A DNA stretch of 64,000 bases from an uncultured Pseudomonadota bacterium. GTDB lineage: Bacteria; Pseudomonadota; Gammaproteobacteria; Steroidobacterales; Steroidobacteraceae. A program made the position numbers and the translations under genes. Of this stretch, positions 30,999 through 40,624 are shown piece by piece; within the stretch, counting starts at the first letter, position 1; every line of letters starts with the position of its first letter. The notes beneath the pieces were generated by a model, which was given only the letters and a program-made list of their open reading frames with translations, ran no database searches and was not told the origin of the DNA. The DNA is taken from positions 74,298 through 138,297 of the forward strand of contig CAVSAR010000011.1 in assembly GCA_963726085.1 (NCBI GenBank). Direction: 5' to 3'.

Positions 30999-32969
30999 TT
31001 GCAGCCTACTACGGTTGGGTCACGGGTATTCATGATCGGCACTGGGACAGTAGCGAAGCCTGGAGAAGCGGTCTACCCGCGCTCCCATCGCCTTGTCCGG
31101 CGACTGGCGCTGTTTTACGCGATAGCCGCGATTGCCACTGGCACCCTGCTGCTGGCCGGGCTGTTGCCCGATGGCACCGCGACGCAGCTTCGATCACTGG
31201 CCGGTGAGGCCATCGCGGGTGGACTTGCCGGCCTTGTTCTTTCGGCACTCCTGCTGTCCCTTACTGGCCTGCTGGCCACGCTCGCGCTGACCACCGCCCG
31301 CTTTCGACACGCCACTGCGGACCAAGCCGCAGCTGCAGCCCGATGGCGCGATGCGTTGCGGCACCCAGGAGTGGCCGCACGCGTTGGGCAAGCCGTCATT
31401 GTCACGGCTGGCGCCCTGCTGGTCTTTCTGGTCACGCGCCTGTTCTGGCCCACTGCCGTTAATCCCGCCAATGCCACTATTGCCAACATTGCCGGCGCGT
31501 TCGTGCTGGCGCTGGCATTTGCATCCCTCGTGTCCGAGCGCGTGCTCAACTCTTTCCCCGCCCCGCAGCTGCCGGAAGCCCCAAGCTTGCGGCGCCTGCT
31601 GTTGCTGACCACTGTACTGCTGGCGGCCGCTGCCGCGATCGAATTCGCGCGGGGCGCCATGGTCGCCTGGTTGCACTGGCCGCAAATGGTGATTGCCTGC
31701 GTGCCGGGGCTTATCGCGCTGGAGCTGGCGTTGCGCGCATTGGCTCGGCTGTTCCTGCCTGCGCCGCCAGCCGCCACCGCCACTGCGGTCACCGACAGCC
31801 TGCTCGCGGGCCTGCTTACCGGTGGGCCGCGCTCGCCTGGCACGCTGTTGCGCACCCATCTGGGACTGGATTTCGCGCGCAGCTGGGCGTTGTCGTTCCT
31901 GAGCGCCGCCATCTTGCCCGCGCTGTTCGGCACGGCGCTGCTGTGCTGGGCATTGACCGGGCTGAAGCTCATCGATCTGGGGCAGCGCGGCATCTACGAG
32001 CGCTTCGGCGCTCCGGTTGCCGTGCTGGGTCCGGGACTGCATTTGCTGATGCCCTGGCCACTGGGCCGATTGCGCCCGGTGGAGTTCGGGACCATCCACT
32101 CGGTGGCCATTGGCGTCGACGACGCAACGCCCCAGTCCGAAGAGCACATAGCCGCCGAGGCCACGCCGCCCGTCAGTCTGAACCGGCTCTGGGAAAGCGC
32201 ACATCCCGGGCAGGCCGAATATCTGGTTCCCAGCCCGGGCACCGGGCAGCAGGGCTTTCAGAGCGTGAGCACCGAGATCAGGGTCCTGTACCGCGTCGGG
32301 CTGACTGATGCAGCGGCCCTGCAGTCGGTGTACACGGTTGCGGATCCACAGGCCCTGATCCGGTATGCGGGAAGCCGCCTGGTGCTGCGCTACTTCAACT
32401 CGCGCACGCTGGATGCCGTGCTTGGTGCGCAGCGCGATAACGTTGCAACAGCCCTGCAGGAGGCACTGACTGCCGACCTCAACTCGCACCATGCCGGGAT
32501 CGAGATCGTTTCGGTGCTGATAGAGGAGATCCATCCTCCCGCGGGGGCTGCTGCCGCCTACCACGCGGTCCAGGCCGCTGAGATCAATGCCAGCGCCAGT
32601 ATTTCCGATGAGCGCGGACGCGCCACGCGCGTTGCTGGCGTCGCGCAGCAGGAAGCACATCAGCTGCTGGTCGGGGCGACCGCGCGTGCCGCCGAGGACA
32701 TCGACGCCGCCAATGCCGAGGCCTATCGATTCAACGCGGAACGTCGTGCCTATGCCGACGGCGGCCAGGCATTTCTGCTCGAACGCTCCTTTTCGAGACT
32801 GCAGGCTGCCCTTGCCGACAGGTCCCTATTGCTCATCGATCATCGCCTGAGTTCCGCCGAGGTTCCGGTTCTCGACCTGCGCCAGCGCGAGAAGGCGGCC
32901 GCAGGGGCCAGGATCGATGGTACCGATGCCGTCCTGGAGCTGGGTAGCCCGCCTAACAGCACCCGCTGA
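30999..32969 (+). CDS. SPFH/band-7 domain protein with a large N-terminal polytopic membrane domain.
   Basis: 656 aa from a TTG start (alternative ATG at 31032). The first ~300 aa hold several TM helices. The SPFH core follows (GIYERFGAPVAVLGPGLHLLMPWPLGRLRPVEF) with an Ala/Glu-rich coiled coil. Confidence 0.65.
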   Translation: MQPTTVGSRVFMIGTGTVAKPGEAVYPRSHRLVRRLALFYAIAAIATGTLLLAGLLPDGTATQLRSLAGEAIAGGLAGLVLSALLLSLTGLLATLALTTARFRHATADQAAAAARWRDALRHPGVAARVGQAVIVTAGALLVFLVTRLFWPTAVNPANATIANIAGAFVLALAFASLVSERVLNSFPAPQLPEAPSLRRLLLLTTVLLAAAAAIEFARGAMVAWLHWPQMVIACVPGLIALELALRALARLFLPAPPAATATAVTDSLLAGLLTGGPRSPGTLLRTHLGLDFARSWALSFLSAAILPALFGTALLCWALTGLKLIDLGQRGIYERFGAPVAVLGPGLHLLMPWPLGRLRPVEFGTIHSVAIGVDDATPQSEEHIAAEATPPVSLNRLWESAHPGQAEYLVPSPGTGQQGFQSVSTEIRVLYRVGLTDAAALQSVYTVADPQALIRYAGSRLVLRYFNSRTLDAVLGAQRDNVATALQEALTADLNSHHAGIEIVSVLIEEIHPPAGAAAAYHAVQAAEINASASISDERGRATRVAGVAQQEAHQLLVGATARAAEDIDAANAEAYRFNAERRAYADGGQAFLLERSFSRLQAALADRSLLLIDHRLSSAEVPVLDLRQREKAAAGARIDGTDAVLELGSPPNSTR

Positions 32970-32996
32970 TCACCATAGTCAGGTAAAAGAAAATGT

Positions 32997-33984
32997 TTGC
33001 CACATCACGACAACCCCGATCACGACCATGATCATGACCATGACCACGACTTCAGGTTCGGTCTGCGCATCGGGGTTGCCGCACTGATCCTGCTGGCCGC
33101 GATTGCGGCGGCCTGCATCGTCATGGTCCCCGCCGGCGAAGCCGGTGTGATCACCCGCTTCGGCAACCCGGTGCGCGTGGTGACCGAGCCGGGACTGGCG
33201 TGGAAGCTGCCCGCGCCGTTCGAGAGCACGATTCCGTCGATCTGCGCCTGCGCACGACCTCCACTGGACTGCAGGACGTCGGCACGCGCGATGGGCTGCG
33301 CGTCCTGGTGCAGGCCTACGTTGCCTGGCAGGTGCCGGACGATCCGCAACGGGTGCGCCAGTTCCTGCGCTCGGTGCGCAATCAACCCGATGAGGCGGCC
33401 GTGCAGCTGCGCAGCTTCGTGAGCGCTGCGCTGCACATCATCTCGAGCAATTTCGATCTCACGGATCTCGTAAATATCGACTCGAACAAGGTGCGGCTCG
33501 ACGCCTTTGAGCAGGCTCTCAGCGAGCAGGTCGCCCCGCGCATGCTGCAGATCTATGGCATCGATATCCGCCAGGTCGGCGTCGAGCGCATGACGCTGCC
33601 GGATGAAACGCTGGCGGCGACGGTTGCCAGAATGCGCGCGGAGCGCGAGACCGTGGCGGCGGAACGCACCGCGGAGGGCCTGCGGCAGGCAGCGGCGATC
33701 CGCGCCGATGCCGATCGTGATGCGCGCGAAGTCGTCGCGCAGGCGCGCGAACAGGCCGCGCATACGGAAGCCGATGCGCAGCAGGCGGCGGCCCGCATCT
33801 ATGCCAAGGCCTACCAGGGCGATCCAGGCCTCTACAGCACCCTGCGCTCGCTGGATGCGATCAGCCAGATCATCGGGCGCAACACGAGCCTCGTGCTGCG
33901 CACGGATGCGGCACCGTTTCGGGTACTGGTAGACGGACCCTCCGGCGCCGCACCGCCCCCGGCAAGGCTGGCACGCAGAAGTGA
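32997..33984 (+). pseudogene. SPFH/band-7 (HflC-like) protein. The reading frame is broken by 1-2 single-base indels (probable sequencing errors).
   Basis: N-terminus MPHHDNPDHDHDHDHDHDFRFGLRIGVAALILLAAIAAA...GEAGVITRFGNPVRVVTEPGLAWKLPAPFESTIP continues in another frame as VDLRLRTTSTGLQDVG... (frame switch near 33235). A one-base change in the C5 run near 33955 would give ...PPPGKAGTQK-stop, forming a GTGA overlap with the next gene's GTG start. Confidence 0.6.
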
Positions 33985-38778: not shown

Positions 38779-38782
38779 TCCG

Positions 38783-40624
38783 ATGGACCTGAGCCACAAG
38801 CCCTTGCGTGTATTTGCGTTCTGCGTGATCGCAGCCTTGCTGATCGTGGCGCTGGTGAATCTCTACCAGGCACAGCGGGTGCGTCCCGAGCAACGCGACA
38901 TCCCATACTCGCAGTTTCGCGACGATGTCGATCATGGCCTGGTGCGCAGCGTGCGGATATCCGGGCAGGAAATCACCGGTACCCTGGCCGACCACAAAGC
39001 TTTTCGCACCTACGCAGCAGTGGACCCGGATCTGGTCCCGGCGCTGCGGGCAAAGGCGGTAGTCATCACCGCCATCGCAGCACCGGCCACCGGCTCGACC
39101 TGGCCCACGCTCCTGGGGACCTTGTTGCCAACCCTACTGCTGCTGGGCGTGATGCTGATCTTCATGCGCCGGGTTCCCGGGCTCAGCAGCGGCAGCATGG
39201 GACTGGGCAAATCCAAGGCGCGGCTGCTGACGCAGACCGCGGGGCGCGTGACCTTTCGTGACGTGGCGGGAGTCGATGAGGCCACGGAGCGACTGCAGGA
39301 AATCGTGGATTTCCTGCGCGATCCGCAGAAATTCCAGCGGCTGGGCGGGCGGATTCCGCGCGGCGTGCTCATGGTGGGGTCCCCGGGGACCGGCAAGACG
39401 TTGCTGGCACGCGCAGTCGCGGGCGAGGCCAACGTGCCGTTCTTCACGATCTCCGGCTCGGACTTCGTGGAGATGTTTGTCGGCGTCGGCGCCTCGCGCG
39501 TACGGGACCTGTTCAACCAGGCCAAGAAGAGCGCGCCGTGCATCATCTTCATGGACGAGATCGACGCGGTGGGCCGGCGGCGCGGCGCCAGTGTCGGCGG
39601 GGGCAACGATGAACGCGAACAGACGCTCAACCAGTTGCTGGTCGAGATGGATGGATTCGAATCCAACGAAAGCGTGATCCTGATTGCGGCGACTAATCGC
39701 CCCGATGTCCTCGACCCTGCACTGCTGCGGCCCGGGCGTTTCGACCGCGAGATCGTGGTGGGCAACCCGGACGTCCTGGGCAGGGAACAGATTCTCAAGG
39801 TTCACGTGCGCAATGTTCCACTTGCCGCCGACGTTGATCTGGCTGTCATCTCCCGCCGTACCCCCGGATTTTCCGGCGCCGATCTGATGAACCTCGTCAA
39901 CGAGGCGGCCTTGCTTGCAGCCCGTCGCGCGCAAAACACAGTGGGCATGCGGGAATTTGAGGACTCAAAAGACACGGTAACCATGGGCGCCGAGCGACGC
40001 ACCCATGTAATGACCGAAGACGAACGCCGCCTGACAGCCTATCGCGAGGGCGGCCGGGCGATCGTCGCAATGCACGTCCCGGCCGCAGACCCGATTCACA
40101 AGGCCACCATCGTTACACGCGGGCGAGCTACCGGCATGGTCAAGCAGCTCCCGGACAACGACCAGTTGTCCATGACACTGGAGCAGATGAACTCGCGGCT
40201 GGCGATCCTGATGGGCGGCAGGGTTGCCGAGGAAATGATCTTTGGCCGGCTCAAGGTCACTTCGGCAACCGCTGGCGACATCGAGATGGCTACCCGGCTC
40301 GCCCGAATGATGGTCACGCGATGGGGACTCTCCGAAGCGCTGGGTCCGGTCGCCTATGGCGAGAATGTGGAAGACGCATTCCTCGGCCACTCGGTGGCGC
40401 ACGAGCAGAACTATTCCGAGCACATCGCGCAAATCATCGCCGTCGAAGTGCGCAAGCTAGTCGATGCGGCACTGGCACAGGCCCAGGACATCCTCGCCAC
40501 GCATCGCGCGCAGCTGCAAACACTGGCTCACGCGCTACTGCGCCATGAAACACTGAGTGGCGATGAAATCCGAAATCTGCTGGCGCCAGGCCCCGGAACT
40601 GGCGCAGATCCAGGGTCCTGCTGA
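38783..40624 (+). CDS. ftsH: ATP-dependent zinc metalloprotease FtsH (paralogue).
   Basis: Start [25 protein letters not shown] is preceded by AAAGAGAA. Walker A GSPGTGKT, second region of homology, and zinc site HEGGRA (written here as HE..GRA context: [19 protein letters not shown]). Confidence 0.9.

Follow-up and report, generated by a model that had tools for sequence, protein, structure and literature searches.

FtsH is usually regarded as a zinc protease with one copy per bacterial genome. In Escherichia coli it is found together with the SPFH proteins HflK and HflC (7VHP/7WI3). Plant chloroplasts have FtsHi1-5, M41 AAA+ proteins in which the HEXXH zinc site is lost while the ATPase module is kept, and which work as motors, not as proteases (PMC8197885, PMC11266112); in the reviews of FtsHi and pseudopeptidases, pseudo-protease FtsH comprises these plant proteins and one Prochlorococcus (cyanobacterial) gene. 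HflK/HflC-family proteins are also encoded, next to a heavy-metal ATPase, in the Pseudomonas aeruginosa cluster PA2439-PA2435, which specifies an HflK-family protein, an HflC protein, an HflC-family protein, a hypothetical protein and the P-type ATPase HmtA (PMC4542158, Table 2). All genes of this cluster are upregulated 5.6- to 14-fold in a znuA mutant (PMC4542158), the PA2439 promoter is shifted by Zur (PMC8531726) and the proteins of the cluster increase under zinc depletion (PMC11761036). HmtA is reported to be a Zn/Cu importer, a role for which reviewers still want confirmation (PMC10393844), and the three SPFH genes, PaFlo5-7, have a patchy distribution, probably due to horizontal transfer, and gave no clear phenotype when deleted (PMC13086221). 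Here we analyse a locus that has likenesses to both systems, at positions 30999 to 40624 of a 64-kb stretch of DNA (hereafter the window; contig CAVSAR010000011.1, positions 74,298 to 138,297) from an uncultured bacterium of the Steroidobacteraceae. It holds three SPFH genes (SPFH1, SPFH2, SPFH3), a P1B-type ATPase gene, cbtA and cbtB, a gene for a CobC-like histidine-phosphatase-fold protein (hisPhos), and an ftsH whose product has arginine at both zinc-ligand histidine positions (arginine-type FtsH).

The window has a GC content of ~64%, and the nearest relatives of its proteins come from metagenome-assembled genomes labelled Steroidobacteraceae or Gammaproteobacteria. We mapped its genes by combining an open reading frame listing with Pfam matches and comparison with intact relatives, and compared it with loci from relatives and metagenomes (numbered L001, L002 and so on), among which L005 and L006 are contigs from JGI with 93.8% DNA identity to the window and intact cluster genes. 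The cluster holds up and is found again in related soil bacteria, and its FtsH, judged by sequence and gene neighbourhood, is tied to metal-uptake genes and is not an ordinary quality-control protease. An earlier interpretation drawn from the letters of the window (the sequence-only reading) had seen here an FtsH/SPFH membrane quality-control module linked to metal stress; its observation is partly confirmed and its interpretation partly supported.

An FtsH clade with arginine at the zinc-ligand positions

The ftsH gene (38783..40624, + strand) encodes a protein with intact AAA+ motifs, in which Walker A (GSPGTGKT), Walker B (IIFMDEIDA), the FVG pore loop and the second region of homology are all present, as they are across the clade, and in which HEXXH is replaced by REGGR. 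Both zinc-ligand histidines are thereby changed to arginines, which align exactly to H417 and H421 of E. coli FtsH (7VHP, E = 1e-202), while the Glu of HEXXH and the Asp aligned with the third zinc ligand (assigned as in PMC11266112, Table 2) are retained. Two N-terminal transmembrane helices flank a periplasmic domain, as expected for FtsH (residues 10-28 and 111-129 in the L002 orthologue by hydropathy scan), and orthologues match Pfam FtsH_ext, so that the protein shares with its E. coli counterpart the two helices, the periplasmic domain, the AAA+ module and the M41 fold but not the two histidines. Public annotation hides the H-to-R change, since the protein still matches the NCBIfam model 'ATP-dependent zinc metalloprotease FtsH' at 806 bits.

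When the window protein and its best 120 database relatives were considered, 100 of the 121 sequences had RE[GS]GR, one had REGGH and 20 (~70% identity) had HE[AG]GH. The arginine forms were monophyletic in a neighbour-joining tree of 83 sequences (98/100 bootstraps), with the HE[AG]GH set as their sister group, one member of which lies in a tolQ-tolR-...-tolB-pal-cpoB-tilS-ftsH context. The tol-pal-tilS-ftsH order is a housekeeping arrangement typical of Alphaproteobacteria. Mean identity was 70% among the arginine forms, falling to 67% against the sister group and to 54% against other phyla, and the clade is told apart from all other sequences by the two H-to-R changes, F25Y and F138L alone. 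The window gene lies in a cbtBA/hisPhos context, which is neither rlmE-ftsH-folP nor tol-pal-tilS-ftsH, and no second ftsH was found within the 64-kb window. A scan of genome contigs with FtsH returned mostly canonical FtsH of other phyla, in which the pattern CIIFMDEI is universal, and three new arginine-type loci. The tree thus places the arginine-type FtsH in a distinct clade, probably of paralogues and not of the canonical housekeeping type, in line with the separation that the sequence-only reading had proposed. The same reading made this FtsH part of a quality-control module; a self-sufficient quality-control protease it is very unlikely to be, since arginine takes the place of both zinc-ligand histidines in the whole clade, and we know of no route to peptide hydrolysis at a metal-free M41 site.

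The combination of a lost HEXXH zinc site with a preserved ATPase module is shared with chloroplast FtsHi1-5. However, FtsHi keep very few active-site residues, whereas here nearly all but the two histidines are conserved, and the host is bacterial and the gene context one of metal transport. An origin independent of the plant FtsHi is suggested by the position of the clade as sister to alphaproteobacterial housekeeping-type FtsH in our tree of 83 non-plant sequences. We found no description of an arginine-type bacterial clade in the literature on FtsHi and pseudopeptidases, and the clade, with its fixed partners, is apparently undescribed.

Genes that accompany the arginine-type FtsH

The hisPhos gene (38191..38778, +; Pfam His_Phos_1, 1.7e-26, 93.6 bits) ends 4 nt ahead of ftsH, and immediately precedes ftsH at every arginine-type locus with upstream sequence available. 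On the opposite strand lie cbtA (37044..37811, -; Pfam PF09490, 246.4 bits against a threshold of 30.7) and cbtB (37852..38073, -; 73 aa; Pfam PF09489, 32.6 bits against a threshold of 27), and cbtB/cbtA are found beside the arginine-type FtsH wherever the contig reaches far enough. Neither hisPhos nor cbtAB neighbours were present at the other 77 FtsH loci of the genome scan (HEXXH was read in 75 of them; the motif read-out failed in two). From this distribution, the partnership of hisPhos and cbtAB with the arginine-type FtsH appears obligatory, and its closest partners prove to be CbtAB and the CobC-like protein rather than the SPFH trio. All genes named in the sequence-only reading are indeed present, including cbtBA, but it missed that the latter are on the opposite strand and overlooked hisPhos directly before ftsH.

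The best NCBIfam match of hisPhos is the alpha-ribazole phosphatase CobC (TIGR03162), at 97.7 bits and hence below the cut-off of 162.9. The RHG motif is CHA in the hisPhos family (alignment A1), its arginine being absent, and the protein falls outside the definition of CobC. At codon 10 the window hisPhos has Gln (CQA) where the seven relatives in the same alignment have the conserved His (CHA), a difference that reflects either an error of sequencing or an inactivating mutation particular to this genome. A Cys-His dyad in this protein, considered as a metal site, was dropped given that several relatives have Ser or Ala in place of the Cys.

A metagenome scan with hisPhos yielded 314 relatives. 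Those at 60% identity or above have an arginine-type FtsH after them wherever the contig extends, and those at 43-52% identity belong mostly to same-strand cbtB-cbtA-hisPhos units without FtsH. Three of these more distant units (L142, L149 and L161) have a cobalamin riboswitch immediately ahead of cbtB, whereas none was found before cbtB in the window or in the seven FtsH-bearing loci L002-L004, L007, L012, L091 and L099. CbtA and CbtB of the window thus resemble the riboswitch-controlled CbtAB transporters in passing the Pfam thresholds and in having such distant units as relatives, but differ from them in lacking the riboswitch and in being coupled to an arginine-type FtsH. Cobalamin riboswitches that precede TonB receptor/Btu-like genes or nrdAB do occur nearby in the window, L012 and L091. 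The one in the window (27689..27922, -; Rfam RF00174, 85.6 bits), which is context outside the core cluster, precedes a TonB-dependent receptor gene (25401..~27680, -; matches to Plug and TonB barrel domains), the true start of which should lie further in because the long open reading frame, 25401..27893, overlaps the riboswitch.

Across the loci, the metal-related neighbours comprise cobalamin riboswitches, TonB receptors and ZnuBC-like ABC, ZIP and Nramp genes, so that the metal link assigned to this neighbourhood by the sequence-only reading stands. In L091 (8499..9954) and L170 (7895..9350), a ZnuC/ZnuB-like pair (ABC_tran and ABC-3) is directly upstream of hisPhos-ftsH on the same strand, and is itself preceded by nrdAB under the control of a B12 riboswitch. 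A near-invariant non-coding block of ~65 bp (GCCAAAACACCTTTATGTC...CATAGCCTATTCTGAAGCGCTTGTATTACAAAGGATTAG) lies upstream of hisPhos in nine loci (L004, at 9330..9400, L007, L108, L111-L114, L118 and L123) and holds a CCTTT/AAAGG inverted repeat and a TATAAT-like element. RNA structure or covariation was not detected in the block at these nine loci, and it is therefore probably a promoter or operator; the window lacks it and has a different sequence upstream of its hisPhos.

The SPFH genes and the ATPase form the other half of the cluster. SPFH1 (31032..32969, +, within an open reading frame from 30999; 645 aa, exact match P0001) has a Band_7 domain at residues 325-540 (6.5e-18), and is followed by SPFH2 (32993..33984, +), an HflC-like Band_7 protein with a cytoplasmic (HD)n tail, SPFH3 (33981..35071, +), an HflK-like Band_7 protein with a poly-Pro N-terminus, and the ATPase gene (35076..37028, +; Pfam E1-E2_ATPase, 4.7e-51; SCPC, LHNVST and DKTGT motifs). 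Three SPFH genes and then a P1B-ATPase gene form one operon in the window, L001-L004, L168 and L169, and L001-L004, L006-L007 and several metagenome loci all have this same order, with stops and starts that overlap. The three proteins have the HflK/HflC plan of a single transmembrane helix followed by SPFH and coiled-coil regions, and score best against the NCBIfam models for hflK (SPFH1, 61.4 bits, and SPFH3, 56.0 bits; cut-off 159.4) and hflC (SPFH2, 117.6 bits, 4.9e-34; cut-off 134.4), none of them reaching the equivalog cut-off. They also differ from the E. coli HflK/HflC pair in being three rather than two, with a polytopic domain in one of them, and in having metal transporters as partners in place of the hfq-hflX-hflKC context.

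The polytopic N-terminal domain of SPFH1, which the sequence-only reading had rightly picked out, comprises roughly 310 aa (31032..31970) with seven helices fused to an HflK-like SPFH domain; it is predicted to be a seven-helix bundle (predicted local distance difference test score, pLDDT, >90) and has invariant charged residues. A search of 1.84 billion representatives recovered 167 relatives of this domain, the full-length ones being ~600-700 aa, consistent with SPFH fusions, and none outside the SPFH1 family. Its top structural matches are cation diffusion facilitator zinc transporters (YiiP, ZnT3, SLC30A10), too weak for any claim. As for the His-rich N-termini noticed in the other two proteins, that of SPFH2 holds up, its His/Asp tail being conserved in 11 of 12 orthologues, but in SPFH3 the histidines are not conserved and only the poly-Pro stretch remains.

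No HMA (heavy-metal-associated) domain was found in the ATPase, which has only the E1-E2_ATPase and Hydrolase domains. [SA]CPC and LHN[VM]ST are present in all 17 orthologues examined and do not correspond to the SPC/HEGxT motifs of P1B-4 ATPases. The best match in the PDB is 7QBZ (E = 5e-79), deposited as 'Cadmium translocating P-type ATPase', which we take to be sCoaT of the Co/Zn/Cd-exporting P1B-4 class. Both lack an N-terminal HMA domain and have an M6 motif that starts with His and ends with Ser-Thr, but the M4 motif is CPC here and SPC in sCoaT, and that of M6 is HN[VM]ST here and HEGST there.

Orthologous four-gene operons, with one-to-one best matches, occur on a Rhizobium tumorigenes plasmid and on a conjugative Klebsiella aerogenes plasmid (37% identity for SPFH1, 50-55% for SPFH2, 37-38% for SPFH3 and 51-56% for the ATPase), in both cases without FtsH or cbtAB. 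The ATPase is frequent in Enterobacteriaceae, which account for all of the best 120 matches to the Klebsiella protein, and the SPFH trio with the ATPase thus appears to be an independent mobile operon. In the Klebsiella copy SPFH2 has no tail and the ATPase has a His-rich N-terminus, while in Rhizobium both have a His-rich tail; presence of the tail on SPFH2, on the ATPase or on both fits, in this small sample, an SPFH2 tail that serves the ATPase in trans. By gene order and content, this half of the locus belongs to a known but poorly understood kind of cluster, sharing with that of hmtA the three consecutive HflK/HflC-family genes followed by a heavy-metal P-type ATPase and a patchy spread suggestive of horizontal transfer (PMC13086221); the FtsH paralogue, cbtAB and the CobC-like gene, in contrast, have not been reported in the P. 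aeruginosa cluster.

Linkage of the two halves could be assessed at the 13 arginine-type loci with at least 6 kb of flanking sequence on both sides. In eight of them the SPFH-ATPase operon is within 10 kb of ftsH, in at least four arrangements. SPFH1-2-3-ATPase is followed by cbtA-cbtB on the opposite strand and then by hisPhos-ftsH in the window, L002 and L122; the order is inverted in L003, L004, L107 and L118, with hisPhos-ftsH converging on ATPase-SPFH3-2-1; L124 has another, further order; and in L091, L170 and L171 an ABC-ATPase gene, an ABC-3 permease gene, hisPhos, ftsH, SPFH1, SPFH2, SPFH3 and the ATPase gene share one orientation. In L172, and it seems also in L089 and L090, the gene immediately after ftsH is of the SPFH1 type and has no SPFH2, SPFH3 or ATPase gene beside it. 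That linkage persists through such rearrangement speaks for a functional tie between the modules, in which SPFH1 would be the likeliest direct partner. The adjacency that the sequence-only reading saw in one genome hence extends to relatives, in eight of the 13 well-flanked loci and, as a lone SPFH1-type gene, in L172, but FtsH and the SPFH trio, although repeatedly adjacent, are less tightly associated than FtsH is with the CobC-like protein and CbtAB, and the SPFH-ATPase operon also occurs without FtsH. Linkage of the two modules is, in short, frequent but not obligatory.

In this lineage the SPFH-ATPase operon is accompanied by a divergent operon that encodes a membrane-anchored di-haem cytochrome c (30163..30987, -; two CxxCH motifs in the translation, orthologues matching Cytochrom_C/CBB3), a membrane-anchored PpiC-type peptidyl-prolyl isomerase (Rotamase_2; 29210..30166, -; orthologues matching Pfam PF13145, 318 aa in L006) and, as its last gene, a HupE_UreJ_2-type membrane protein (28002..29213, -; 44% identity to the L004 HupE by tblastn, the L001-L004 orthologues matching Pfam PF13795). 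The HupE-like gene adjoins SPFH1 in L001-L004, L006, L107, L118 and L124, and in the window the riboswitch-TonB receptor pair lies directly downstream of it.

Broken reading frames and other features of the window

SPFH2, SPFH3 and the ATPase gene are each split over several frames in the window sequence, so that of the three consecutive SPFH genes and the heavy-metal ATPase described by the sequence-only reading, all are present in order, the ATPase with its CPC and DKTGT motifs, but SPFH2 and SPFH3 are not open reading frames here and the ATPase frame is broken by three deletions. Relative to L005/L006, SPFH2 lacks 2 nt after 33002 and 1 nt after each of 33235 and 33954, SPFH3 lacks 1 nt after 34681, and the ATPase gene lacks 1 nt after each of 35115, 35333 and 36321. 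Downstream of ftsH, a PepSY_TM gene (40670..41621, +) is also split, with 2 nt missing after 41202 compared to the intact 319-aa gene of L005. A plot of GC content at third codon positions by frame was too coarse for counting frameshifts across the whole window.

These events could be taken to mean that SPFH2, SPFH3 and the ATPase gene are decaying pseudogenes after a very recent inactivation, and that the module is no longer functional in the source genome. Seven frame-breaking deletions in 3.3 kb, with none in the coding sequence of the flanking 4 kb and 5 kb, would suit such decay, as would the Gln of hisPhos where relatives keep the conserved His. However, all events are 1-2-nt deletions, and no insertions, larger deletions or in-frame stops were found among the broken genes by comparison with L005/L006; the ratio of nonsynonymous to synonymous substitution (dN/dS) against the same relatives is 0.11-0.17 for the broken genes, similar to the 0.09-0.15 of their intact neighbours; seven of the eight events fall in the 3.3 kb that are the most GC-rich part of the window (0.69); the PepSY_TM gene outside the cluster is broken too; and the relatives come from long-read assemblies, with nanopore-style contig names. 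Since three frameshifts per gene arising by drift should bring relaxed dN/dS, insertions or stops, and none of these was seen, the deletions are probably consensus errors of long-read assembly, and we consider decay improbable.

Elsewhere in the window, the minus strand encodes three large TIR_2 proteins one after another (286..2226, 2096..4324 and 5567..7618), of which two carry TPR repeats; an M20 peptidase lies between them, and the group may represent a defence or signalling cluster. Three RND (resistance-nodulation-division) efflux pumps (ACR_tran) with membrane-fusion and outer-membrane components are at 21069..25312, 48386..51589 and 53056..58966. A 648-aa open reading frame (42428..44374, +) overlaps two minus-strand genes called in L005, one with an aspartyl-protease domain, and is probably not a real gene, such spurious frames being common in GC-rich DNA.

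Possible function of the locus

The explanation that we favour, while granting it somewhat less than an even chance, is that the locus is an island for cobalt or zinc acquisition and homeostasis, rather than a stress protease system, in which a zinc-independent, non-proteolytic FtsH motor would work with dedicated HflK/C-like proteins. It would consist of two modules, both at the inner membrane: the SPFH1-SPFH2-SPFH3-P1B-ATPase operon, and cbtB-cbtA with the hisPhos-ftsH operon. The arginine-type FtsH would be a zinc-free, hexameric, ATP-driven unfoldase or dislocase unable by itself to cut peptides, whose two guanidinium groups may replace the charge of Zn2+ electrostatically and hold the site together without metal. 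It may act with its dedicated SPFH proteins, in the manner of FtsH inside the HflKC cage, in the assembly, gating or removal of CbtAB and the ATPase, and the HD tails of SPFH2 could provide in trans the cytoplasmic metal-binding region that the ATPase lacks. Loss of zinc ligands in a protein encoded among metal-uptake genes is reminiscent of the zinc-independent paralogues of Zur regulons, such as DksA2, C- L31/L36 and FolE2 (concept in PMC4542158), with the difference that DksA2 and the others keep their function without zinc. More tentatively, the arginine-type FtsH might be a bacterial counterpart of the plant FtsHi, which would have arisen through exchange of the two zinc histidines for arginines and be used under zinc or cobalt scarcity, alongside metal importers and an HflK/C-like cage of its own; as such it would be a lone dislocase or assembly factor for membrane proteins, or would enter mixed hexamers and so redirect housekeeping FtsH towards metal transporters.

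Several points weigh against the metal-island explanation. Its support comes from gene content, conservation, clade structure and linkage, with the metal and the direction of transport both predicted, and its tie to PA2435-PA2439 is one of gene order and content, not of sequence orthology. A Pseudomonas-type Zur box was not found anywhere in the window, though Zur boxes differ between taxa. Three genes of the SPFH-ATPase operon carry frameshifts in the window. The distant cbtBA-hisPhos units that lie behind B12 riboswitches and have no FtsH suggest cobalt/B12 rather than zinc. Finally, either module can be found alone: the SPFH-ATPase operon has no FtsH in L001 and on the Rhizobium and Klebsiella plasmids, and the FtsH unit has no SPFH genes within 10 kb in L009, L012, L096, L099 and L126, the neighbours at FtsH loci without SPFH genes including Nramp, TonB receptors, DUF4331 and DUF305.

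This separate occurrence, together with the mobility of the SPFH-ATPase operon (PMC13086221), is also what would be expected if an hmtA-type operon and a cbtBA-CobC-like-FtsH unit merely stood side by side in a region rich in metal genes, with no interplay. We find this doubtful, since the modules are adjacent in eight of the 13 well-flanked loci despite inversions and reshuffling, and form a co-directional string in L091/L170, and since ftsH is followed at once by an SPFH1-type gene, without the rest of the operon, in L172 and apparently in L089 and L090. A purely cobalt/B12-related role seems less likely again. In it, CbtAB would import cobalt, hisPhos would be a CobC variant of cobamide synthesis, FtsH would be an ATP-dependent accessory that controls CbtAB post-translationally in place of the riboswitch of the more distant relatives, and the SPFH-ATPase operon would serve in cobalt export or buffering. 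The alpha-ribazole phosphatase match of hisPhos, the riboswitch upstream of cbtB in the FtsH-less L142, L149 and L161 and its absence from eight FtsH-bearing loci, the B12 riboswitch genes nearby in the window, L012 and L091, and 7QBZ (sCoaT) as best PDB match of the ATPase all agree with it; however, there are no cob/cbi genes adjacent at the loci examined, hisPhos lacks the RHG arginine and stays below the CobC model threshold, and the P. aeruginosa cluster of the same order is zinc-responsive, with reported Zn/Cu import (PMC4542158, PMC10393844).

The proposal of a metal-stress protease, in which a second FtsH, proteolytically active and under the influence of three HflK/C paralogues, clears damaged membrane proteins and the ATPase pumps out excess metal, is closest to the sequence-only reading. 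That most P1B-ATPases are exporters, that the SPFH proteins are HflK/C-like and that the genes are linked would favour it, but it is very unlikely in view of the two arginines that take the place of the zinc-ligand histidines across the clade. Metal stress is in itself doubtful, given that what induces the same-order P. aeruginosa cluster is a lack of zinc and not a surplus (PMC4542158, PMC11761036), that CbtAB is a predicted importer and that the HupE-like, TonB-receptor and ZnuBC-like neighbours are, like cbtAB, uptake genes.

The arginine-type FtsH proteins make up a large proteobacterial clade, strongly conserved and set apart from canonical FtsH by little more than the two zinc ligands, and offer a natural experiment on what an FtsH motor and an SPFH cage may do without proteolysis. 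They would tie AAA+ machines to trace-metal economy, and supply the hmtA/PaFlo5-7 genes, which zinc starvation induces, with a partner and a setting that can be tested. If the arginine-type FtsH is indeed a bacterial counterpart of FtsHi, the Pseudomonas HmtA/PaFlo5-7 cluster, so far unexplained, would gain a function as well.

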